Shown here piece by piece: positions 23,856 to 60,573 of a DNA stretch of 64,000 nt. Source of the DNA: Thermodesulfobacteriota bacterium. Its GTDB lineage: Bacteria > Desulfobacterota > Desulfomonilia > UBA1062. A program made the position numbers and the translations under genes. The notes beneath the pieces are model-generated. The model saw only the letters and a list, made by a program, of their open reading frames with translations. It made no database searches and had not been told where the DNA came from. The stretch lies in assembly GCA_034716155.1 (NCBI GenBank), contig JAYEFR010000082.1, positions 427-64,426 of the forward strand. The letters run 5' to 3'. The first letter of the stretch is position 1; each line of letters opens with the position of its first letter.

Positions 23856-23885
23856 TCTTTTGACGTAACTACTTCGGTTGTCAGG

Positions 23886-24066
23886 TTCAAGGTTCACAGT
23901 TCACGGTTGGGCGCATCCAGGGCGACATAGCGCTTACTCTGGGCTTCCGTGCAAAACCTATCCGGCGTATTGCAAGAAGCGGATGAACTCCGCATTCATC
24001 TCTGAATCGAACCTCTCTTTCATCAGCTTAACCCTAAACCGTGAACCCCGGAACTTTGAACCTGAA
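23886..24066. repeat. ~180-bp element bounded by 27-bp inverted repeats (CAGGTTCAAGGTTCACAGTTCACGGTT ... AACCGTGAACCCCGGAACTTTGAACCTG); MITE-like
   Basis: The terminal inverted repeats are seen directly; the 68-aa ORF inside is probably spurious. Confidence 0.4.
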
Positions 24067-24078
24067 TGGTTACCTTTT

Positions 24079-28965: not shown

Positions 28966-31900
28966 CTATTCAAGATCAAGATTGATAGTTTCTTTCTCTA
29001 CTTCAGGATACACCTTGTCAATTGCCTTCTGAACTTCAATTGTTTTTTTAAGGGATGTAACAACCTTGCAGTAATGTTTTATATCCTCAAGGGATAGCAC
29101 CTTATCCTTTCTATCTTTCAGCCATTTACTGCAAACTTGATACCCACCGATCTGATATTCCCAGCAATCTTTCGGAATCCCTTCAAAATACTGGTTTTGA
29201 TTGATATAGATACATTCTTGCTTTTCATCATATCTTAACTTCTCGACCTTTTCGTCACCACTTCCCTGAAATTTGGCAAGGGGAGGATCAAGTTCTTGTG
29301 ATCTCAATAAATGCAAATCAACCAATTCTTTTCCATATTCAGCCATCCTGTTAAATATCTTGCAATCTCTTGTAAATGGAATTCTCGGGAAACCTCCCTT
29401 TAGAAACTCGGCATATTGAGTACGGTAGATATTCGAATAGAGAATTGCGTAGATGTAGTAGAAAATCTCTTCTGGTGTAATATTGGTAGAACAGACATTC
29501 TTGTCTGTTTCCTCTCTGTCTGTTTCTCCGTTGAAATACCAACCATGATACCCCCATGGACTTTCTGTTAATGCTCTTTTCACTGGATTATTCAGCATAT
29601 AATTCATTTTCTCGTTCAACTCGTTTTGATCCCTTATAATTCTATCAAAAGATTCCTCTTGCCAGATAGAGCCAGAAGTCCCCCTTTTTAAGTTGAGTTG
29701 TCGGGCTGATGCCCCCTTAATACCTCTCATTATTCTACTAAGATTATATTCTTCCTTCGGGGTCAACAAAAGATGAACATGATCTGGCATTACAATGGCT
29801 GCAATAAGTGTATAAAATTTTCCATTGCCCTCTATAATGTGTTTCAAAACCAGTTTCTGTTCCTCGATAGATAGATCTCCTTGGGCTGTTCTGAAAGTAA
29901 CAAAATATGTTGCATCCTTCAATGTCCAGTGTGGGAGATGTCTTCTTGTGATTTGAAGGTCATTGGTAGAACAGACATTTTTGTCTGTTTCCTCCAAGGT
30001 AGAACAGACATTTTTGTCTGTTTCCTCCAAATTAGTGTCAGACAAGAATGTCCGACCTACCGGACCTACCGCCGGACCTGCACTTTTACAAATGTCGGAT
30101 AACGCCTTGAAAATCTTTGGATTTATATTGGGTTGCCTTTTCTCTGCCTTTTCCATGTGGCCAATGAGCTCTTTCCTGTCTGTGTAGGGGTAGAGGTAGA
30201 GGGGAGCTAAGCTCATAATTCCTCTGTTGCTATAAAATGACCGATTGTCGATAATATTTTGGCTAATAAAAACATGGCTATATGTCTCATTTAATGCTAC
30301 CTGACGCATAAAGACAAGTCCTATATTCCCCTGCATCATGTGACGCATGACCTTTTTGCGTGAACGTTCAATAACTGCATCGTGATAGAAAATCCATCGA
30401 ATATCAAAGGGCCGATATAAAATCTTTGTGATAGAATCTCCCCATTTTTTATCCTTTCTCACCTCTTCTCGTGCAGCTTCCAATTTCCAGTTTGATTTAT
30501 CCTTTAACTCAAAGGTTTGTCTTACAAGGCCATCGGGCATATTTTTATCGCAGAAGGTCCTAATCCGCTGTTTAAGCTTTTCTTTATCAGAGTCTATTAC
30601 AAATTTGTCTCTTGATGTTACCACCCCCACACTATTAAGTGGAAATATCTCAGTTATTTTAGGCCATCTTTCATAATACTCTAAAAGCCTTTCATCCCTT
30701 GGCACAAAAAGATAAAATTCAGATTTTGGGGAGAGCTGATTCCATTCAATTGTTTCTACATTATTCTCTAAAAGCCACTCGTATTTATTTTCTCGCATCC
30801 CCCAAATCTCTGAATGATAGACCTTGCATTCGCTCTTTTTCTCTTGATTTTTTATACAGAGTGCAATGGCTACACCCTGCTGGATGTCAAAGACATTTTC
30901 ATCCTTAGAGCCGTCAGGGCTCTTCTCTTTTTTCAGGCTATTGCCGTGTAGATCAAGAATATAGATTTCATTGAAACTGTTCATCACTGATTGGCGCATA
31001 CCTCTAAAGGTGGGATTATCAAGATAGCTATGATTGGTAATATATCCTAATACTCCTTCACCTGCCTGATCAATCTTCCACTGGGCAAACCGGATGAATT
31101 TCACATAATCGTCCTGAAGCCATTTTGGATTCTTTTCTCCAAGGGGTTTACCATCAACAAACTTGTAATCCCCAATAAGCTTTCCTATCCACGTTTTTAT
31201 CTTTCTTCTCTTTGCTATACCCTTTTTTGTTTTTATTGTGATGTACCTTTCACTTGCATTTGCAGAATGCCCTGAATACGGCGGATTGCCGAGGATTACC
31301 AGTATAGGCTGTTCCTTTTTAACTTTACCAGCCAGATGAGATTCCTCAGAAAGAGATGCCATAAACGGCAACCCTGTTTCAGCAAGTTCCTCCATCTCCA
31401 ATGTATTGGTGAGGTATAGTTTGAATCTGTCATCTTCTTTGAGTCTATACCCAAGCTCTTCTAAGAGAAAAGACATCTTCAAATAGCCCACTGCATAGGG
31501 AGCCATCATCAACTCAAAGGCATAAAAATTCTTAAGGATATGTTCTTTAATAAAATTCCCTTCCCCCCCTTCGCCATATTTAAAGACAAATTCCTCAACT
31601 GCCTGTTTTGCTGCCTCAGCTAGAAAGGTGAGGGTGCCTGCTGCTGGATCTAATACAGTAACCGAGCTGATTGCAAATCCCTCCCGTTTATCAAAGTGCT
31701 GCTTCAAGATGTGATGCAAAGAACGGACAATATAGGATACCACTGATTCTGGCGTATAATAGACACCTCTTTTCTCTCTTGTCTTTGGGTCATATTCGGC
31801 CAAAAAGGTCTCATAGAAATGAACAATAGGATCTTTGCCCCTTCCTTCATGAAAATACGTATGGAGAATTTCATTTACATCAGTAACCGCTAAGACCTCG

Positions 31901-32745
31901 GATATATCATCTATAATCCACTCCATTTGTTTGGGTAAGTCTTCAAGGGAGACAAAACTGAATACATCTCGTAAGATCCCAATAGTGTGTGGAATGTTGT
32001 CGTATGCAAGTTTTCTATTAAATCCATTTTCAGAGCGGGTACGGGCAGCAAAGAGACCATAGGTAATGGTCTGGGAATAGAGATCGGCAAACTCTTCTTT
32101 AGAAAGAGTACCAATAAGATATTTCCTGAATGCCTCATAAAATCCAAAGATGTGACCTTTTCCTTCCTCTTCTTTTAACTCCTGAGCAATGACTTCATCC
32201 TTTAAAAAACGTGTCCTCTTTGCCAATTCTATTGCCAAAGTTTTCGCACTATAGACCTTTGGAAGAGAAAAGGAGAAAAACTTTTCAAGCAATTTGATAA
32301 AATCTGCCTGTTTTTCAACAGGAGGTATCATTTTAAGTTTTTGTGCAACAAATGGCCTGCCGATGAGGACTTGATCTGCCAGGGTGCCATCACGATACAG
32401 CCTAAACTCAAAGAAATTGGTTAGTATCAGATTGGGGAAAGTTTTGCGATAGCGTTTTAACTGCTCGGAATTTTCTATCCTGTCTAAATTCTCAACCATT
32501 GGTGATTTTGCTTCAATGTATCCAACAATATGCTGGGTTCCGTCCCAGACTCTGAAATCAGGATTGCCGGCTTCGGTCTTTTTTGGCAAGATTGTAATAT
32601 AAATATTCCTTTTGCCGACTGAATCTGAATATTCTTTTAATAGACCTTTGAGGACAGAATAATAACTTTCTTCCCTTGCATCCCCCCGAGTTGCAATCTC
32701 AGATATTTTTCTCAAATACGACTTTAGCATCATGTCTTCTTTCAC
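28966..32745 (-). CDS. Single-polypeptide type IIG/IIL (MmeI-like) restriction-modification enzyme, carrying an in-frame RAYT/IS200-like transposase insertion in its C-terminal region
   Basis: 1259-aa continuous ORF. N-terminus has a PD-(D/E)xK-like motif NPDFRVW...IVGYIEAKS. Gamma-class N6-adenine MTase motifs follow: YYTPESVV, VLDPAAGTLTFL (motif I) and ILGNPPYSG (motif IV). The C-terminal ...EEIFYYIYAILYSNIYRTQYAEFLKGGFPRIPF... module is typical of large type IIG/PglX-like MTases. The aa ~850-1040 insert has Y1 HuH motifs (see mobile_element). Confidence 0.7.
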   Translation of the reverse strand: MKEDMMLKSYLRKISEIATRGDAREESYYSVLKGLLKEYSDSVGKRNIYITILPKKTEAGNPDFRVWDGTQHIVGYIEAKSPMVENLDRIENSEQLKRYRKTFPNLILTNFFEFRLYRDGTLADQVLIGRPFVAQKLKMIPPVEKQADFIKLLEKFFSFSLPKVYSAKTLAIELAKRTRFLKDEVIAQELKEEEGKGHIFGFYEAFRKYLIGTLSKEEFADLYSQTITYGLFAARTRSENGFNRKLAYDNIPHTIGILRDVFSFVSLEDLPKQMEWIIDDISEVLAVTDVNEILHTYFHEGRGKDPIVHFYETFLAEYDPKTREKRGVYYTPESVVSYIVRSLHHILKQHFDKREGFAISSVTVLDPAAGTLTFLAEAAKQAVEEFVFKYGEGGEGNFIKEHILKNFYAFELMMAPYAVGYLKMSFLLEELGYRLKEDDRFKLYLTNTLEMEELAETGLPFMASLSEESHLAGKVKKEQPILVILGNPPYSGHSANASERYITIKTKKGIAKRRKIKTWIGKLIGDYKFVDGKPLGEKNPKWLQDDYVKFIRFAQWKIDQAGEGVLGYITNHSYLDNPTFRGMRQSVMNSFNEIYILDLHGNSLKKEKSPDGSKDENVFDIQQGVAIALCIKNQEKKSECKVYHSEIWGMRENKYEWLLENNVETIEWNQLSPKSEFYLFVPRDERLLEYYERWPKITEIFPLNSVGVVTSRDKFVIDSDKEKLKQRIRTFCDKNMPDGLVRQTFELKDKSNWKLEAAREEVRKDKKWGDSITKILYRPFDIRWIFYHDAVIERSRKKVMRHMMQGNIGLVFMRQVALNETYSHVFISQNIIDNRSFYSNRGIMSLAPLYLYPYTDRKELIGHMEKAEKRQPNINPKIFKALSDICKSAGPAVGPVGRTFLSDTNLEETDKNVCSTLEETDKNVCSTNDLQITRRHLPHWTLKDATYFVTFRTAQGDLSIEEQKLVLKHIIEGNGKFYTLIAAIVMPDHVHLLLTPKEEYNLSRIMRGIKGASARQLNLKRGTSGSIWQEESFDRIIRDQNELNEKMNYMLNNPVKRALTESPWGYHGWYFNGETDREETDKNVCSTNITPEEIFYYIYAILYSNIYRTQYAEFLKGGFPRIPFTRDCKIFNRMAEYGKELVDLHLLRSQELDPPLAKFQGSGDEKVEKLRYDEKQECIYINQNQYFEGIPKDCWEYQIGGYQVCSKWLKDRKDKVLSLEDIKHYCKVVTSLKKTIEVQKAIDKVYPEVEKETINLDLE
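29485..30030 (-). mobile_element. RAYT/IS200-IS605-family Y1 (HuH) transposase module flanked by GTAG-hairpin REP sequences, inserted in-frame inside the RM gene
   Basis: Hairpin GGTAGAACAGACAttcttGTCTGTTTCCTC at 29485-29515, followed by a partial reiteration through ~29530. Tandem copies GGTAGAACAGACAtttttGTCTGTTTCCTCCAA sit at 29965-29996 and 29998-30029. Between them the translation RRHLPHWTLKDATYFVTFRT...IVMPDHVHLLLTP...RGTSGSIWQEESFDRIIRD...NYMLNNPVKRAL carries Y1 transposase hallmarks (HuH = HVH, Q..F.D/R.IR, Y...NPV). No ATG start of its own; each hairpin is translated as (E)ETDKNVCST(N) within the host ORF. Confidence 0.7.
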
Positions 32746-43766: not shown

Positions 43767-43932
43767 GGATGAAAATATATCTAGCCCTGAGTGGTTTTTT
43801 AGTTTTGTACATATACTTGTCAGTAGTCCATTGCTCGTTGTCCGTTGTAAAACCTTCAGATATAATTATCACCTCCCAATATACCACTGACAACTAACTA
43901 CGGACAACGGACGAGTATTTTTTATATAAACA
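43765..43932 (+). repeat. Intergenic repeat family B, copy 1 (MITE/REP-like, begins right after the TPR gene stop)
   Basis: AAGGATGAAAATATATCTAGCCCTGAGTGG...CTTGTCAGTAGTCCATTGCTCGTTGTCCGTTGT...CCACTGACAACTAACTACGGACAACGGACGAGTATTTTTTATATAAACA. Confidence 0.65.
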
Positions 43933-46992: not shown

Positions 46993-47003
46993 CCCATCAA
47001 CTG

Positions 47004-47226
47004 TTTGTATGAAAATAGGGGTCGGGGATCAGGGGTCGGTTTTCAGGGATGAATGTTTTTCTCATCCCGAAAATATTTTCATCGTTAGTTGTGGCCGGTA
47101 GGCCATGGCAGTTTATATGAAAAAGAAGTCAGGAGTCAGAATTCAGAAGTTAGGATACACGTAATAATCCAATCGGAAGCATTCCGGATTCTGGATACTT
47201 TTTCATGCTTCGTTTATATGAAAATA
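47004..47226 (+). repeat. Intergenic repeat family A, copy 3 (most complete: X+Y+Z modules)
   Basis: TGTATGAAAATAGGGGTCGGGGATCAGGGGTCGGTTTTCAGGGATGAATGTTTTTCTCATCC...GTTTATATGAAAAAGAAGTCAGGAGTCAGAATTCAGAAGTTAGGATACACGTAATAATCCAATCGGAAGCATTCCGGATTCTGGAT...CGTTTATATGAAAATAGC. Confidence 0.65.
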
Positions 47227-47593
47227 GCAATCAGCATTAAATCAAAATAAAAAAATTTAGTGCTTACATAGAAAACATGAGTGAATATCTAGGTTTTCTA
47301 TCAGAGGGGGTCGAATTTTAAAGGAAAAGTTAGATTTAGCAAATTATGAGTTGTCTACAAAATGTAGAAAACCTTAGAATATGAGCTTATGACAATGTAA
47401 ATCAATATTATGTGGAATACCATAAAAAGTTTAGCGATCTTAGTGCATTAACTTTTGTATCTCTCTATTAAGGGGAATTTTTTATTTGGTGCTAAATGAC
47501 GAAAATCGACCGAGTCGAAGATTGACGTCATCTTGTGAAAGTAAGATACATGGCAACATATACTGTGGTAAACAAATTTTATATGGGGGGCAT

Positions 47594-48940
47594 ATGAACA
47601 AACAACCAGGTCTTGGACATATAAAAGACTTAATACAGACAAAAGTAAAAAATCCCTCAGAAAAACCGCTGATAGATCAAATGGATATCTGCATACAGGA
47701 TGGGTCTGCTATGGTATATTGCCCAAGCCCTTTTGTTCTCAATTATATACATCAACATCACAAAGACATTATTATAAATGAGATACAAAAACTCCTTGGT
47801 AAATCTGCGGACATAGAATTCTCTGTGCGCTCTAATAAAGGCTCCAATAAAAAGTCATCTTCTATAAACAAGCCCATACAAATGGTTCTCCCCTCTGCTG
47901 CTAAGCCCTCACCTGTACGAGGGCTCAATCCAAAATTTACATTTGAGGAATTTGTGGTTGGTAAGTGTAATGCCTTTGCATATGAGGCAGCAATGGCGGT
48001 GTCTGACGAGGCTCTAAGCAAATACAGTCCATTATACTTCTATTCGGATACAGGCCTTGGGAAGAGTCATATTGCGCACGCTATTGGGAATAAGGTGATA
48101 AAGTCCGAGGCAAATATTACGGTAAGGTATACCACAGCTCAAGATTTCTCCGCAGAATATGTGTATTCTGTTAGAAATAATCGTATTGATCAATTCAAAC
48201 GCACGTATAGTAGCAAGTGTGATGTCTTTTTTATTGATGATGTACATCTATTCAAAAACAAAGAAAAGACTCAAATGGAGCTAAGCTATATACTAGATGA
48301 ATTTATGAGTAATGATAAACAGGTTGTCCTTTCGGGATTCAGACCTCCGGCATCAATCCCCTATATGGATAAAGGCCTAAAATCAAGATTTTCTTCTGGA
48401 TTGGTAATAGATATAAAGAGGCCTGACAGACAAACCAGGGCCAATATTGTAAGACGTAAGGCATCAAAAGAGGGTATATCTCTTCCGGATGATATAGTAG
48501 GCTTTATTAGCGAGAATATAAAGAATAATATCAGAGAACTAGAAAGTGCAGTGCTGACCGTATCTGCTATGAGTTCTTTGATGAAAAGAGAAATCACATT
48601 GGATATGGTAAAAGAACTCCTGGAAGGAACACTTGAAAGGCGGGAAAGGATATCCATCCCGTTTATCCAGGGATTTGTGGCAAAAAACTTTGGGATCTCA
48701 AAGGAGCAATTAATCTCCCCGTCAAGAAAGAAAGGGATTGTATATCCAAGGCAAGTCGCAATATTTCTATGCAGGCACTACACAAAAGAGCCCTTACAGG
48801 TTATCGGCCAGACCTTTTCCAGAAGGCATTCCTCTATTATACACTCTCTAGAGGTAATCGATGAAATGTACACCGGAAATTTGAAGACAAAAAGAGAGAT
48901 CGATTTCCTTATGGAAACATTAGAAAATGCCGTACTCTAA
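47594..48940 (+). CDS. dnaA: Chromosomal replication initiator protein DnaA
   Basis: Domain III NPKFTFEEFVVGKCN, Walker A GDTGLGKSHIAHAIGN, Walker B-like DVFFIDDVH, sensor IRELESAV; domain IV ...YPRQVAIFLCRHYTKEPLQVIGQTFSRRHSS.... Start preferred at MNKQPGLGHIKDL (47594, G-run RBS); the 36-codon extension to 47486 looks non-coding. Confidence 0.9.
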   Translation: MNKQPGLGHIKDLIQTKVKNPSEKPLIDQMDICIQDGSAMVYCPSPFVLNYIHQHHKDIIINEIQKLLGKSADIEFSVRSNKGSNKKSSSINKPIQMVLPSAAKPSPVRGLNPKFTFEEFVVGKCNAFAYEAAMAVSDEALSKYSPLYFYSDTGLGKSHIAHAIGNKVIKSEANITVRYTTAQDFSAEYVYSVRNNRIDQFKRTYSSKCDVFFIDDVHLFKNKEKTQMELSYILDEFMSNDKQVVLSGFRPPASIPYMDKGLKSRFSSGLVIDIKRPDRQTRANIVRRKASKEGISLPDDIVGFISENIKNNIRELESAVLTVSAMSSLMKREITLDMVKELLEGTLERRERISIPFIQGFVAKNFGISKEQLISPSRKKGIVYPRQVAIFLCRHYTKEPLQVIGQTFSRRHSSIIHSLEVIDEMYTGNLKTKREIDFLMETLENAVL

Positions 48941-48943
48941 GGC

Positions 48944-49122
48944 CTTTATATGAAAATACTTGTCCGTTGTCCGTGGTTAGTTGTCAGTGGTATATTGGAA
49001 GGAGATCATCCTATTTGGAGGGTTTATTACAACGGACAACGAGCAAAAAAACTACTGACAGGTATAAGTACAGAACTAAACGATCGCTCAGGGCAAAATA
49101 CATTTTCATTCTTCGTTGTGTC
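48944..49122 (-). repeat. Intergenic repeat family B, copy 2 (inverted relative to copy 1; begins right after the dnaA stop)
   Basis: Its reverse complement aligns base-for-base with 43765-43932, including the GTCCGTTGTCCG and TTGTCAGT cores and TTTATATGAAAATAC at one end. Confidence 0.65.
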
Positions 49123-52527: not shown

Positions 52528-54198
52528 CTAAGCGCTATATCTTTGCTCTAACCGTTTTTTTGTATACTCATCTATCATCTTCAACAAGACATCCTTCTTT
52601 GCCTCAAGATATGTATTTCCTTTTATATATTCATTGAAGAACAACATTCTTTTCTCAAGGGGGGTAAATTCCGTAAGCGATGCATTTAAATAGCTTAAAT
52701 TTTTCGCTATCTGCCTGATTCCCAAGAAATGACGCCTTTTAAGCCTATCCAAATCTATTAAAAAGAATTCTTTTTTATCCAGAGAAACAAGGATATTATC
52801 TCCCTTTAGATCCACGGGCAATAACCCCATCTCATGGATATGTCTTACATAATGAGAGAGGGCTAATATTTCTTCATCACTAATACCCTTTTGCTCTACA
52901 TACTCTACGAGGTTTAATGCATTAAGACCGTATGTCGCAATAAATGAATTGATAAGCACCCTAAATACCCTCTTCTCACAGGCGAATACCGGCATGGGTG
53001 TGCGCATTCCCAAGGAATCCATAACAAGGGCCCCTTCAAAGGTATTAAGCGCCCTGCTTTTCCGAAATACATTTTTGATGGTGTCTTTAATCCCCTTAAA
53101 ATTGTATCGTTTCAGATATATGAAATCTCTATCCAGGTATCCCCTCTTCACAAAGGTCGTCCTGGATCGATTCATTACATCCCAGGCGGATGACTCCATG
53201 AATATATTAGGGGCTATGATTTGTGGTGGGACCCGTGCTTTTTTGGCTAAAAACCACTTATATCCATTTTTCATTATAACTTTATATCTTAGAGTTAAGT
53301 CTTCCAACCCCCATGTAGACGGCATACCTATTAGGTGCCATAAAAGGAGGACAAAAGATCGCTTTAATCTTTTCCTCATATCAGGGATAAAAGAAATCAA
53401 TAGATTCGCACCAATCTCTAATGAAAGTTTCAGGAGCATACCTATATAAAGCATTATAGTGTTGTATATGCCTTTATGTTTCAGGAAAAACCTGTACAAA
53501 GAACGATAAAATTCTATCTTCCTTTGGGTATCCAGCCTTCTTGCGCTCAAGCCCTGATAATGAACGATCTTGAGCCCAGGCAGGTGCCATACCTCAAAGC
53601 CATGATCTGTTGCCCTTTTACAAAAGTCTGTCTCCTCTAAGTAAAAGAAGAAGCCTTCATCAAGGAGACCTATCTCATCTATAAGGCACCTCCTTATCAT
53701 CATAAACGCACCAATGACAGATGGGACCTCTACAGGGGATGTAAACTTGGAGCGCTTGCTTGGATAGGACACAGGAAAGATAATCTTTAAAAGGGCCTTA
53801 TTCAAGAGTTGAGTGGTAAGCGTTGGTATAACATCTACAGAATTTTGGAGTCTCCTATCCCCAAAGACAAGCTGAATCCCACAGACTCCAGCCCTTGGAT
53901 GCCCCTTCATAAAATTTTGCGCAGGGGTTATTACATCGGTAATAAGCAAGGTGTCTGCATTCAATAATAATACAAACTCGCCTGAAGCTATCCTTATGCC
54001 CATATTTGCTGCCCTGGCAAACCCGAGATTCTGTCTGTTCTCTATAATAGTAATGTCTTTATCTGGAATATTAAGGGAAGTGGCAAAATTATTCACGACT
54101 ATAATCTCGTAATCACAGCCTGCATTTTCTCTAATGGATGCAATACAGTTGATAAGATGTTCATCTTGGCCCAGTGTTATTATGATTATGCTGACCAT
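52528..54198 (-). CDS. Bifunctional family-2 glycosyltransferase / lipopolysaccharide (Kdo/WaaP-type) kinase fusion protein
   Basis: N-terminal GT2 (MVSIIIITLGQDEHLINCIASIREN...), C-terminal LPS-kinase-like region (...LPVDLKGDNILVSL...FFLIDLDRLK...). Confidence 0.65.
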   Translation of the reverse strand: MVSIIIITLGQDEHLINCIASIRENAGCDYEIIVVNNFATSLNIPDKDITIIENRQNLGFARAANMGIRIASGEFVLLLNADTLLITDVITPAQNFMKGHPRAGVCGIQLVFGDRRLQNSVDVIPTLTTQLLNKALLKIIFPVSYPSKRSKFTSPVEVPSVIGAFMMIRRCLIDEIGLLDEGFFFYLEETDFCKRATDHGFEVWHLPGLKIVHYQGLSARRLDTQRKIEFYRSLYRFFLKHKGIYNTIMLYIGMLLKLSLEIGANLLISFIPDMRKRLKRSFVLLLWHLIGMPSTWGLEDLTLRYKVIMKNGYKWFLAKKARVPPQIIAPNIFMESSAWDVMNRSRTTFVKRGYLDRDFIYLKRYNFKGIKDTIKNVFRKSRALNTFEGALVMDSLGMRTPMPVFACEKRVFRVLINSFIATYGLNALNLVEYVEQKGISDEEILALSHYVRHIHEMGLLPVDLKGDNILVSLDKKEFFLIDLDRLKRRHFLGIRQIAKNLSYLNASLTEFTPLEKRMLFFNEYIKGNTYLEAKKDVLLKMIDEYTKKRLEQRYSA

Positions 54199-55151
54199 AA
54201 CTCCTCTAGTCTTTCTATTACATCATCTGAGGTAATTGCCTCCATACATATAGGATTGCTACACCTTCTTGCATTGCACGGATTACACCCCACGTCCTTT
54301 TGGATGACCTGTCCTTTAAATGGCCCTGTCCTTTTTGGATCTGATGGTCCAAACAGGGCAACTACATCCTTTCCAATGGCAGAAGCCAGGTGCATAGGCC
54401 CTGTATCACAACTTACCACCACCTTAGAGCCGGCCAGCACCTCCTTTAGTTCCAGGACCGATGTCTTTCCAACAAGGGCTATCACTTCACTATCTGCCAT
54501 GGTTAGTATCTCCTTTGCCATAGGGATATCCTGACTTGCCCCCGTAAGTACAGAGACCATTTGAAATCTCCGCCTAATGCCCTTCGCTAGATCGGCAAAC
54601 CCTTTTGCATTCCATCTATTTGCTTTTTTGGTAGCCCCAAGATTCAATACCACATAGTCATCCGGAAGATTATACGGCGTTATGCCTTTTACAGGGATAT
54701 CCCATCTGATATCCGGATTCTTTATTCCAAGGTATTTGCCAAACTCCAAATATTGGAATACCATATGGGTGTTCGGATCAGATTCCGGTATCCTCTCGAA
54801 TGGAAACAGATAACTCGATTCCTTGCACCTTTTTTTATCAAAGCCTATGCGTCTTTTAGCCTTTGATGCCTGGCAAAATAGAGCAGATTTTATGATCCTT
54901 TGCAGATCCAATACTACATCAAAATTTCTACACCTGAGCTGTTTTATAAGACCAGGAAGAGCCTCTGCCCAATTATATCTGTCAAACAATATTGCATGAT
55001 CCACATAACTGTGTTCTGCAACTATGGGATAGCTAAGTGGCTCAACAACCCAGGATACATCTGCGTGCATATATCTTTTTAAGTTTATCACGAGAGGCAG
55101 TGTATTAATCACATCACCTAAAGAACCCAACTTTATAATCAATATATCCAT
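54186..55151 (-). CDS. Family-9 glycosyltransferase (ADP-heptose:LPS heptosyltransferase-like)
   Basis: MDILIIKLGSLGDVINTLPLV... is the canonical GT9 N-terminus. Start preferred at 55151; the track start at 55187 lies inside a 34-bp perfect palindrome. Confidence 0.8.
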   Translation of the reverse strand: MDILIIKLGSLGDVINTLPLVINLKRYMHADVSWVVEPLSYPIVAEHSYVDHAILFDRYNWAEALPGLIKQLRCRNFDVVLDLQRIIKSALFCQASKAKRRIGFDKKRCKESSYLFPFERIPESDPNTHMVFQYLEFGKYLGIKNPDIRWDIPVKGITPYNLPDDYVVLNLGATKKANRWNAKGFADLAKGIRRRFQMVSVLTGASQDIPMAKEILTMADSEVIALVGKTSVLELKEVLAGSKVVVSCDTGPMHLASAIGKDVVALFGPSDPKRTGPFKGQVIQKDVGCNPCNARRCSNPICMEAITSDDVIERLEELWSA

Positions 55152-55177
55152 AACGCTTAATCCTACAATGACACTTA

Positions 55178-55211
55178 GTAATTTCATAACCGTTAACGGT
55201 TATGAAATTAC
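55178..55211. promoter_or_regulatory. 34-bp perfect palindrome GTAATTTCATAACCGTTAACGGTTATGAAATTAC at the 5' edge of the LPS-core operon
   Basis: Seen directly: the 17-nt half-sites are exact reverse complements around a GTTAAC centre. Confidence 0.55.
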
Positions 55212-55337
55212 TTTGTCCTCTGCGTATAGTTTTATGGAGTAGGAGTAATGGAATGTTGGAGTACTGGAATTTTAAAAGCCATCCCACTAGATGCACAATT
55301 GCGCACACAGAACAATGGCAAACGCCCACCATCTTTT

Positions 55338-55362
55338 CAATACTCCAATACTCCAATACTCC
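55338..55362. repeat. Three tandem CAATACTC octamers in the same divergent promoter region
   Basis: CAATACTCCAATACTCCAATACTCC seen directly. Confidence 0.5.
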
Positions 55363-55470
55363 AAACAATATGTTGTGTTATAGTTACTCAATTTATACCA
55401 TATATTGTACCAAAAATGCTAGATGCCGTTGTAAGGTTAAGTGATATTTCATATTTAATATTTTAGCAAG

Positions 55471-55499
55471 TCCTTGACACTAGTATAGAACAGTTGTAT
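55471..55499 (+). promoter_or_regulatory. Sigma70-like promoter (TTGACA, 17 nt spacer, TATTCT) for the coiled-coil gene at 55535
   Basis: TTGACActagtatagaacagttgTATTCT ~35 nt upstream of a strong AGGAGG RBS. Confidence 0.4.
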
Positions 55500-55534
55500 T
55501 CTAAAGACAAATATAATCTATAAGGAGGTTCCCC

Positions 55535-56041
55535 ATGGAGGAAAAAAAGAATAAAAGCTCGACAGCCCCTATTATCTTAGCTGTGGTAGTGTTTATTATT
55601 GGGCTTGGCCTCGGGTATTTCTTGTGGGGTGTAAACAGAGAAAAGGCTCCTGATTATAAAAACATGCTAAAAGAGACCATCGATTACATAGCCACAATAG
55701 AGCATAAAAACCGGCAAACCATCCAGAAGGTAGATGCCCTGGAAAATGAAATTGCTATGCTGCAGAAAGAGAAGGTGGCCTCCGAGGTGTCAGAGGAGAC
55801 AGAGGTTAAGATTAAAGAGATGGAAAAAGAGATACAAGTCCTTCAAGAAGAAAATGCAAGCTTAAAATCCAGTACAACAACACAAAAGGAAATCTTACAA
55901 CAAAACCGGATGTTAAAGGCTACGATCCAACAACTTACGGAGGAATTGACATCCATGAATGCCCGTATGGGTGCTGTGCAGGAGTTGGTAGAACCTCAGA
56001 CGACTATTGGCACATCTGAAATTCCTCCTGGCTTAAAATAA
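55535..56041 (+). CDS. Membrane-anchored coiled-coil protein of unknown function
   Basis: N-terminal TM (APIILAVVVFIIGLGLGYFLW) followed by a heptad-rich, Glu/Lys-rich segment. Confidence 0.5.
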   Translation: MEEKKNKSSTAPIILAVVVFIIGLGLGYFLWGVNREKAPDYKNMLKETIDYIATIEHKNRQTIQKVDALENEIAMLQKEKVASEVSEETEVKIKEMEKEIQVLQEENASLKSSTTTQKEILQQNRMLKATIQQLTEELTSMNARMGAVQELVEPQTTIGTSEIPPGLK

Positions 56042-59550: not shown

Positions 59551-60573
59551 TTAACCACCAGTCAGCTGCCTCATGGATTTCAGGGCGTTCATCTCACCAA
59601 TACAGACAAGGATATCCCCTTTAGATAGTGAGTATTCTGCAGGCGGATTAAATATCATATCCCCTTCACCACCCTTTACAGCTACTACAGTCAGCTCCAG
59701 ATCCTTCCTTATTGGAGAGTCTCTTAATGTCTTGTCAATAAGAGCAGATGAGGCATTTATCTTAAATTCCTCCATCTGGATATGCAAGTCTTCCCGCTTT
59801 TCTCCTCCTGTTGCCAGTTGTACAAAATCCACCACTGTGGGCTTTAAGATTATATTAGCCATATGCCGCCCACCTATCATATATGGAGAGACTACCCTAT
59901 CCGCACCTGCCCGTTTTATATTCCTTGTGGAATCCTCGGTCTCTGCCCTGGCAAGGATAAAGATGCTTGGATTTAGTTCCCTTGCAATAAGTGTTATATA
60001 CACATTTGTCACATCAGATGCCGCCGTTGCTATAAGACACTTGGCCCTCTCGATCCCTCCCTTTATCAGGGTCTCCTCTTTTGTGGCATCACCTAGTATA
60101 TAGGGTATATTCTCCATCTCCAAAGGGTGTACGGCGGAAGGCTCTGGGTCTATCACTACAAAGGGCCGCTTATTTGCCTGCAATTCCTTCCACACAAGGC
60201 ATCCTATCCTGCCATTACCACATATAATATAATGCTGTTGCATGCTTGTTATCTTTTTATTCAACCTCCTCCTCCCTAAAATATTTTGTATTTCACCTTC
60301 TATAATAAATTGGGCAACTGTTGCAAAACCGTATGCAGCAGTTCCAACCCCTATAAAGATAATAAAGACATCAAAGACCTTGCCGGCGCTTGATAATGGC
60401 TGAACCTCTCTATAGCCTATAGTAGTAATGGTTATAAGGGTCATAAAAAAAGAATCCAGAGCCCCCCAGCCTTCTATAAAATGAAAGCCAACAGTCCCCA
60501 CTATAAATAGAAGGGAAAATAAACTGATTACTACCTTAAGTTTGTCTTCGATGGGGGTATCTCTTACTGCCAA
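59551..60573 (-). CDS. Two-TM pore-loop cation channel with RCK (TrkA-N/TrkA-C) domains (Kch/MthK-like), with a non-canonical TIGYRE filter
   Basis: Two TM helices flank a pore helix ...FFMTLITITTIGYREV...; Rossmann-like ...YIICGNGRIGC... RCK domain follows. Confidence 0.7.
   Translation of the reverse strand: MAVRDTPIEDKLKVVISLFSLLFIVGTVGFHFIEGWGALDSFFMTLITITTIGYREVQPLSSAGKVFDVFIIFIGVGTAAYGFATVAQFIIEGEIQNILGRRRLNKKITSMQQHYIICGNGRIGCLVWKELQANKRPFVVIDPEPSAVHPLEMENIPYILGDATKEETLIKGGIERAKCLIATAASDVTNVYITLIARELNPSIFILARAETEDSTRNIKRAGADRVVSPYMIGGRHMANIILKPTVVDFVQLATGGEKREDLHIQMEEFKINASSALIDKTLRDSPIRKDLELTVVAVKGGEGDMIFNPPAEYSLSKGDILVCIGEMNALKSMRQLTGG

Follow-up and report, generated by a model that had tools for sequence, protein, structure and literature searches.

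Miniature inverted-repeat transposable elements (MITEs) such as Correia/NEMIS in Neisseria and ERIC/YPAL in Enterobacteria and Yersinia land in transcribed intergenic regions. They are 100-300 bp long and non-coding, with terminal inverted repeats, a long hairpin that spans the whole element and a short AT-rich target duplication containing TA; they lie beside gene starts and, once transcribed with the gene, can change how its mRNA is processed or provide signals for its expression. Here we describe an insert that resembles them in size, lack of coding potential, overall folding, flanking repeats and position, more weakly in its terminal repeats, and that would likewise be transcribed with the adjacent gene. 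It lies in a 64,000-nucleotide stretch of contig JAYEFR010000082.1 from a Thermodesulfobacteriota metagenome-assembled genome (MAG), which we call the window, between a lipopolysaccharide (LPS) core operon, led by a GT9 heptosyltransferase gene (GT9) followed by a fusion of GT2 with a Kdo/WaaP-type kinase, and a divergently transcribed gene for a 168-aa protein. The insert is 276 bp long (55161..55436) and holds a perfect palindrome and a tandem octamer array. We consider it probable that these are internal structures of a TTAA-flanked, MITE-like foldback element that inserted in this lineage only, and the palindrome is most likely the element's subterminal hairpin, not a host operator. The differences from the Correia/NEMIS and ERIC/YPAL families are that there is no sequence similarity and that a multi-copy family is not demonstrated for the window insert. 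Additionally, Correia elements have terminal repeats of 26 bp where ours match more weakly at 12 of 18 positions, and none of these families has the 36-bp subterminal palindrome or the 8-nt periodic stems of this insert.

We used the spacer between GT9 and the divergent gene in related genomes as the reference for what the locus looks like without the insert. The relatives compared encode GT9 proteins with 94% (P0002; loci L003-L005), 78% (P0003; L006-L008) and 67% (P0004; L009) amino acid identity to that of the window, their nucleotide identities being about 96%, 80% and 67%; in the flanking DNA, L003-L005 share 93-96% identity with the window and L006-L008 ~80%. Gene order is unchanged in all of them. 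Their spacer is 103-104 bp long in L003-L008 and 90 bp long in L009; in the window it measures 383 bp. Global alignment with L003 leaves a single clean gap of 281 nt, and the same gap appears in an alignment with all of L003-L008 (A1). Where the relatives read CAC-TTA-GCGTTATG, the window reads CAC-TTAA, then the 276 nt of 55161-55436, then TTAA-GCGTTATG, the insert thereby sitting 6-9 nt upstream of the GT9 start codon. Palindrome, octamers and intervening DNA are all absent from the syntenic spacers of L003-L009 and, on this comparison, the palindrome appears to have arrived as part of the 276-bp insert. Since three successively more distant relatives are without it, a gain in this lineage explains the pattern most simply, and since dS to L003 is only ~0.10-0.15, the gain would be recent.

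The anatomy of the insert, defined by the gap against the relatives and by its predicted fold, is that of a foldback element. Direct reading gives TTAA on both sides (55157..55160 and 55437..55440), a putative target-site duplication for which the relatives show a single TTA(G) in a spacer 281 nt shorter. The ends form terminal inverted repeats, TCCTACAATGACACTTAG on the left (55161..55178) and CTAGATGCCGTTGTAAGG on the right (55419..55436), which match at 12 of 18 positions without gaps when counted by eye and pair with each other in the predicted folds; a binomial estimate puts the chance of such a match at ~5e-4 for a fixed register. The symmetry extends to the element as a whole: the left half, aligned with the right half in reverse complement, reaches a score of 40.5, where shuffled sequences give 14.8 +/- 7.6. 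A GGAGTA-rich array at 55242..55269, with a 16-nt unit in two copies that are 88% identical, is 82% complementary over 28 nt to 55335-55362, within the right arm (55335..55364) that holds the CAATACTC octamers, so that the octamer array is not free-standing and is predicted to pair with the GGAGTA array as the left and right arms of a long central hairpin. An imperfect palindrome at the element's centre, TGCACAATTGCGCA (55294..55307), would form the tip. As minus-strand RNA, the central hairpin (55236-55368) has a predicted free energy of -54.6 kcal/mol (z = -6.9), while the whole insert gives -94.7 kcal/mol (z = -7.6) as minus-strand RNA, -86.0 kcal/mol as plus-strand RNA and -40.1 kcal/mol (z = -5.1) as single-stranded DNA. 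The insert is smaller than the ~600 bp that bound MITEs in size and is non-coding, with open reading frames (ORFs) of at most 84 aa that have no homologues. Taken together, the TTAA flanks, the empty site, the terminal repeats, the foldback symmetry and the lack of coding potential lead us to the MITE-like reading.

The arms outside the central hairpin are nearly equal (75 and 72 nt), and we therefore rejected the idea that the palindrome is a nested insertion of its own. Three other ideas about it were also not supported. A decayed matching palindrome in the right arm is hinted at by alignment only, and the sequence concerned (55380-55425) does not fold. The arm of the palindrome also agrees with the native start region of GT9 at 12/18 positions, GTTATGAA being shared, and has an 8-mer in common with the conserved ATATGAAATATCAC block, but both likenesses are at chance level by estimate.

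The palindrome itself runs from 55177 to 55212, with 18-nt arms and no spacer (AGTAATTTCATAACCGTT directly followed by AACGGTTATGAAATTACT), beginning 16 nt inside the insert's left end; the end closer to GT9 lies 25 nt upstream of that gene's ATG. A previous reading of this DNA made from the letters alone (the sequence-only reading) had reported a perfect 34-bp palindrome, at 55178-55211. That was right and slightly understated, as A55177 and T55212 also pair and lengthen it to 36 bp. The same reading correctly placed it between the divergent GT9/GT2-kinase operon and its neighbour, and the octamer that it counted three times at 130 bp distance is indeed there, as a perfect tandem array of 3.4 copies (55338-55364, ~130 bp from the palindrome). 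Its judgement that such a palindrome rarely arises by chance is upheld by the runner-up zero-spacer palindrome in the window, which has 8-nt arms, and by 100 first-order Markov simulations of the window, in which the longest arm averaged 8.1 nt and never exceeded 12. A chance origin is excluded. No second copy of the palindrome occurs in the 64-kb window with up to three mismatches allowed (0/100 shuffles matched), and the further half-site copies that the sequence-only reading proposed to look for do not exist there: the 16-nt half-site is found solely in the palindrome's own two arms. Predicted folds give a very strong hairpin on either strand (-15 kcal/mol as DNA, -21.5 kcal/mol as RNA), and in this sense a strong bidirectional hairpin does head the operon, as that reading proposed, but it appears to have been imported with the insert.

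The palindrome can also be traced in a separate assembly. Logan contigs of run SRR26901925, assembled independently of the MAG but possibly from the same reads, cover the locus in two pieces: L002, from the GT9 side, ends at window position 55206, and L001, from the side of the 168-aa gene, begins at 55291. In a de Bruijn graph with k = 31, which we take to be the value used by Logan, we reasoned that the palindrome at 55177-55212 would produce a branch after the k-mer that starts at 55176, of which the last base is 55206, and the end of L002 coincides exactly with this point. Both junctions between the insert and the flanking genes are reproduced, one in each contig. Because the contig ends where a branch is predicted and the junctions recur, we conclude that the sequence of the palindrome is real and was not created by the MAG assembler. 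The break in L001 at 55290/55291, in mid-insert, falls where neither a repeat nor a palindrome would make the graph branch; it may reflect a strain variant or a drop in coverage.

Other small insertions in the lineage lend support to the mobile-element reading of the 276-bp insert. At ~23864-24073 the window has a ~210-bp hairpin element with stems made of inverted AGGTTCA-type heptamer arrays. A 90% identical copy is found at a different locus (L006:8662-8863), where the flanking genes are only ~80% identical, and, as we read them, the two copies are flanked by different target duplications of 7-8 bp, CTTTTGAC in the window and (G/A)AAGCTAA in L006. On the strength of these direct repeats we regard the element as a genuine MITE. 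A ~160-bp repeat with inverted TTGTCCG/CGGACAA arrays occurs at 48950-49110 and, 83% identical, at 43769-43921; at the 48950 site the 96% relative (L003:12251-12339) has, between identical ATGAAAAT...ATTTTCAT flanks, a different, G+C-rich hairpin of 88 bp. Two inserts that the window lacks are private to the 96% relatives, one of ~180 bp between convergent gene ends (L003:5213-5391, also in L004 and L005) and one of ~195 bp that is TTAG-flanked and built of heptamer-periodic inverted arrays (L003:8625-8818, also in L004 and L005). Turnover of small inserts is high in this clade. The palindrome insert has no significant similarity to the L003 inserts A/B or to the window elements at 23865 and 48958, and as judged from these comparisons the small inserts share an architecture, not a family.

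Within the window, three or more elements that are unrelated to one another contain inverted arrays of 7-8-mers (55242-55364, 23865-24073 and 48950-49110). They recall the short tandemly repeated repetitive (STRR) heptamer arrays and Nezha-type MITEs of cyanobacteria, where intergenic tandem 7-8-mers likewise form hairpins from inverted arrays; those belong to another phylum and use other repeat units, and no relationship to the Thermodesulfobacteriota elements is shown. That an uncultured lineage carries several unrelated foldback elements of this kind suggests that the architecture may merit a survey.

A subterminal DNA hairpin ~16 nt from one end is, in turn, a feature of the palindrome-associated transposable elements (PATEs) of the IS200/IS605 type and of the REP/RAYT systems (repetitive extragenic palindromes and their associated tyrosine transposases). 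A further likeness is a partial Y1 (HUH) domain elsewhere in the window (~29658-29814), beside 33-bp hairpin repeats. Elements of these types, however, have neither terminal inverted repeats nor a target duplication and need hairpins at both ends, whereas the insert has inverted-repeat ends and TTAA on both sides, and its right arm does not fold; the 33-mer hairpins are unrelated to it in sequence. We therefore rejected an IS200/IS605-type PATE, as only the left hairpin folds and TIR-like ends with TTAA repeats are present. The Y1 domain is itself of some interest. It resembles that of an IS200-like transposase and lies in a Type ISP restriction-modification ORF (28966-32745, minus strand, 1259 aa; N6_Mtase and Type_ISP_C), in which the C-terminal specificity domain is split, positions 1-142 and 199-339 of the Type_ISP_C profile being separated by ~250 aa in frame (within 29446-30198). 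The intervening stretch also holds a perfect tandem pair of the 33-bp hairpin repeats, GGTAGAACAGACATTTTTGTCTGTTTCCTCCAA (29965-30030), and looks like an IS200/REP-type remnant within a target-recognition domain that still reads through.

Several observations weigh against a MITE-like origin of the insert, the first group of which concerns copy number. Our searches covered the 64-kb window, GTDB species representatives (among which this MAG does not figure), JGI metagenomes, IMG/VR, plasmids, phages and protein databases. With blastn-short, the whole insert has no second copy in the window or in any of the loci retrieved, and distant blastn against plasmids and phages returned nothing. The 20-nt core of the palindrome has only four matches in GTDB species genomes, all unrelated: three terminator-like hairpins with A- and T-tracts in Obscuribacterales (AAAAACCATAACCGTTAACGGTTATGGTTTTT) and one coding sequence. 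The 18-nt arm has 39 matches in JGI metagenomes and eight in IMG/VR, every one of them a single arm that does not extend and most of them coding for NGYEIT. L001 and L002 pass unbroken through the element's ends, which argues against an identical second copy in the sample. The second group concerns the element itself. A cognate transposase or an insertion sequence (IS) with matching ends is not known, and there is none among the window proteins scanned. Terminal inverted repeats matching at 12/18 are weak for a MITE, and a TTAA duplication needs one A more in the ancestral site than the relatives show, a mismatch of 1 nt. Finally, the palindrome is perfect (36/36) while the other inverted repeats of the insert are 67-82% matched, which simple decay of a MITE does not explain.

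As to the last point, had the insert been present since L003 diverged, all 36 sites would survive neutral decay with a chance of only ~1/6, as estimated from dS. A young insertion accounts for the perfection of the palindrome without selection, but not for the degeneracy of the other repeats. Candidate causes of the perfection are selection to keep a hairpin that some protein or RNase recognises, hairpin-templated correction, and a recent fold-back duplication.

Further searches for copies gave the same picture. Neither terminus has a match in IMG/VR, and protein databases contain no spurious ORFs from other copies. The octamer array finds in IMG/VR only one unrelated array, of GGAGTATT x4. 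The sequence-only reading had allowed that the palindrome might turn out to be one of many copies of a dispersed repeat; in the collections searched there is no second copy. As far as seen, then, the element is single-copy in these collections, which fits arrival by cut-and-paste transposition or horizontal acquisition and not a recent burst of copying. A Pfam scan of about 50 of the window's 62 longer ORFs, from which a dozen short ones were left out, found no integrase, invertase, resolvase or complete transposase. The insert's ends, for comparison with IS families, read CCTTACAACGG.../TCCTACAATGAC...; some families have 4-bp duplications and CC-initial ends, which is a lead only, and an IS family assignment was not achieved.

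Two sets of matches are worth recording in their own right. In Candidatus Obscuribacterales MAGs the 20-nt core, CATAACCGTTAACGGTTATG, is found at three loci in two MAGs (L010:2630-2649, L011:2034-2053 and L012:501-520) in the form AAAAACC-core-GGTTTTT, resembling a terminator-type hairpin, with flanks unrelated to the window element. The IMG/VR array (L061:6626-6660, in 3300028837_000794) is an intergenic tandem GGAGTATT x4 of the window's octamer, beside a tandem GCCATGC(G) array; an inverted partner is not visible within the 500 nt read.

If the insert is a MITE-like element, it would be non-autonomous, having arrived by cut-and-paste transposition or acquisition into a TTAA site, with a trans-acting transposase that is encoded elsewhere or has already been lost. 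The insertion would have separated GT9 from its ancestral promoter region. As the ancestral promoter-like site lies beyond the insert and a consensus scan finds no GT9-facing match of at least 9/12 inside it, the operon is probably transcribed through the element, which would thus give the GT9/GT2-kinase mRNA a highly structured leader of at least some 300 nt. Modelled over 55110-55476, this leader has a predicted free energy of -111.8 kcal/mol (z = -6.2), and both hairpin modules persist in it. Its perfect stem of 16-18 bp and the long central one could influence how the mRNA is processed or translated. Additionally, the GTAGGA at the element's terminus would place an AGGA 9 nt before the AUG; no Shine-Dalgarno sequence is seen at GT9 in the relatives, and in the predicted fold the AGGA of the window is paired with the other terminus. 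The insertion appears to be tolerated, since GT9 and the GT2-kinase gene are still under purifying selection: dN/dS against L003 is 0.18 for GT9 and 0.22 for the GT2-kinase gene, values similar to those of the neighbours, and on these we rejected pseudogenisation of the operon after insertion. The locus offers a clean natural case in which a foldback element lies 6-9 nt from a start codon while the operon stays under purifying selection, and could be used to ask how such elements change the expression of envelope genes.

The alternatives can be ordered by how well they survive these results. One of them, unlikely but deserving to be weighed, is that the insert is a structured-RNA module, either mobile or gained horizontally, that works as a cis-acting leader or a small RNA, with the palindrome as a double-stranded target of RNase III type or a translational gate. 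Such a role can coexist with a transposon origin. The GT9-sense strand does fold better than its complement (-94.7 against -86.0 kcal/mol), the leader is markedly stable (-111.8 kcal/mol, z = -6.2) and the operon it would precede is under purifying selection, but the strand asymmetry is small and there is no Rfam match. A known RNA family was rejected on the latter ground: in the whole window nothing reaches the gathering threshold, and only chance-level hairpin matches of up to 22.5 bits were returned. An intrinsic terminator was also rejected, as there is no such site in 54900-55700 and the stem is A+T-rich, with no run of T after it on either strand.

About equally unlikely, in our judgement, is an indel without a transposon, in which foreign or rearranged DNA entered by illegitimate recombination and the palindrome formed later through a fold-back (template-switch) error of replication. 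This would accommodate three awkward facts, namely that the insert is single-copy in all collections searched, that the palindrome matches at 36/36 beside inverted repeats of 67-82%, and that its right-arm counterpart (55380-55425) does not fold. It does not lead one to expect clean boundaries, TTAA at either side and ends that form inverted repeats, nor a foldback symmetry of the whole element, which is typical of mobile elements; moreover, arms of 75 and 72 nt imply that the palindrome is no extra nested piece.

Unlikelier by a shade is a more novel reading, according to which Thermodesulfobacteriota have a class of small mobile cassettes that is new to science and of which this insert is the first to be seen, with a hairpin actively maintained for recognition by a transposase or nuclease or as an RNase III gate; its arrival between promoter and start codon would rewire expression of the LPS inner-core operon. 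The sole hint of it is the contrast between the 36/36 palindrome and the other repeats at 67-82%. If true, the insert would be a mobile regulatory module, not junk.

The sequence-only reading had favoured, among other options, a high-affinity site for a dimeric regulator, and operators of dimeric repressors do share with this locus an exact dyad symmetry in a divergent promoter region. Under that hypothesis the palindrome would be a host transcription factor site serving the promoters of the LPS-core operon and the 168-aa gene, and it could draw on its perfect dyad symmetry between divergent genes and on a weak promoter-like match, ATGAAA-N17-TATAGT, that starts in the right arm. However, typical operator half-sites are far shorter than 18-nt arms. 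The site is missing from three relatives with the same operon and spacer (L003-L009), the 64 kb contain no further half-site, and promoter-like sites are no more numerous than in shuffles. Nor is a gene for a DNA-binding regulator adjacent, the neighbours encoding response-regulator/HD-GYP and receiver-only proteins. With neither conservation in orthologous spacers, nor further sites, nor an adjacent regulator, the regulator site is left unsupported, and we regard it as very unlikely. Thus, what looks like an operator would be a recent strain-specific insertion, which says nothing about the normal regulation of the operon.

Still less probable is an inverton or other target of a site-specific recombinase, which would serve phase variation of the LPS core. 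A segment of ~280 bp bounded by inverted repeats upstream of surface-polysaccharide genes has the general form of one, but the bounding repeats match at only 12/18, the window proteins scanned include no integrase or invertase, L001 and L002 cross both boundaries in a single orientation, and the segment neither contains a GT9-facing promoter match of at least 9/12 nor occurs in the relatives. The recombinase or invertase site of the sequence-only reading, absent in relatives and without a recombinase among the window proteins scanned, accordingly lacks support; the comparison of orthologous spacers that it had itself suggested speaks against any resident operator or invertase site, the relatives' 90-104-bp spacers having none of these features. 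Least probable of all is a chimeric join or hairpin artefact, for although library or assembly artefacts can produce perfect palindromes and the Logan contigs do break within the region (at 55206 and 55291), both junctions are reproduced in L001 and L002, the end at 55206 is the branch expected of a genuine palindrome, and the flanks on the two sides differ, which argues against a long fold-back chimera.

We also revisited the starts of the neighbouring genes, because two ORFs, 54186..55187 on the minus strand and 55202..55444 on the plus strand, begin inside the palindrome. The sequence-only reading had noted their mirror-image starts. Both ORFs do open there, but they are artefacts of gene calling and neither start is real. 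All GT9 homologues begin M-D/E-I-L-I-I-K-L-G, which corresponds to the ATG at 55151, and the NCBI model of the window's own GT9 (P0001, 'MAG: Thermodesulfobacteriota bacterium'; 321 aa, 100% identity) starts MDILIIKLG. As homologue N-termini and P0001 agree, we rejected the start at 55187 in favour of 55151. The 80-aa ORF on the plus strand has no homologue among 5.8 billion proteins, and an 84-aa ORF on the minus strand has none among 1.84 billion cluster representatives. GT9 (PF01075), the first gene of the operon, therefore occupies 54186..55151 on the minus strand and is followed by the GT2 and Kdo/WaaP-kinase fusion (52528-54198, minus strand). The divergent gene (55535..56041, plus strand), for a membrane-anchored coiled-coil protein of 168 aa, has a good Shine-Dalgarno sequence and is untouched by the insert; past it lie response-regulator/HD-GYP, receiver, YceG, RuvX and TrkA-type genes.

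A consensus scan, in which promoter-like sites are altogether as numerous as expected from shuffles, places one for each direction outside the insert. The one facing GT9, TTGTCT-N17-TATACT (55482..55510, minus strand, 9/12), has a -10 hexamer, TATACT, that is invariant among the relatives, and is a candidate for the ancestral GT9 promoter, now 281 bp further from its gene. The one for the 168-aa gene, TTGACA-N17-TATTCT (55474..55502, plus strand, 10/12), is conserved. Directly outside the insert, the block at 55441-55465 (GTGATATTTCATATTTAATATTTTA; GT9-sense consensus TAAAATA..AAATATGAAATATCAC) is nearly invariant down to the 80% relatives. If the divergent promoters have a true regulatory or UP-like element, this block is more likely to be it than the palindrome is.

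Two further observations concern genes at some distance. The TrkA-type channel gene is intact in the window (59551-60573, 340 aa), and in the 96% relatives (L003/L004:670-1697) gene calls divide it into products of 182 and 153 aa, so that a frameshift or stop is suspected there. A dnaA-type gene (Bac_DnaA and Bac_DnaA_C; 47486-48940) lies ~6 kb from the palindrome and is preceded by a 490-bp intergenic region (46993-47485) with many short tandem arrays (AGAAGTC x3.9 and others of the GGGGTCGG type); the region as a whole (46993-48940) may be origin-proximal.

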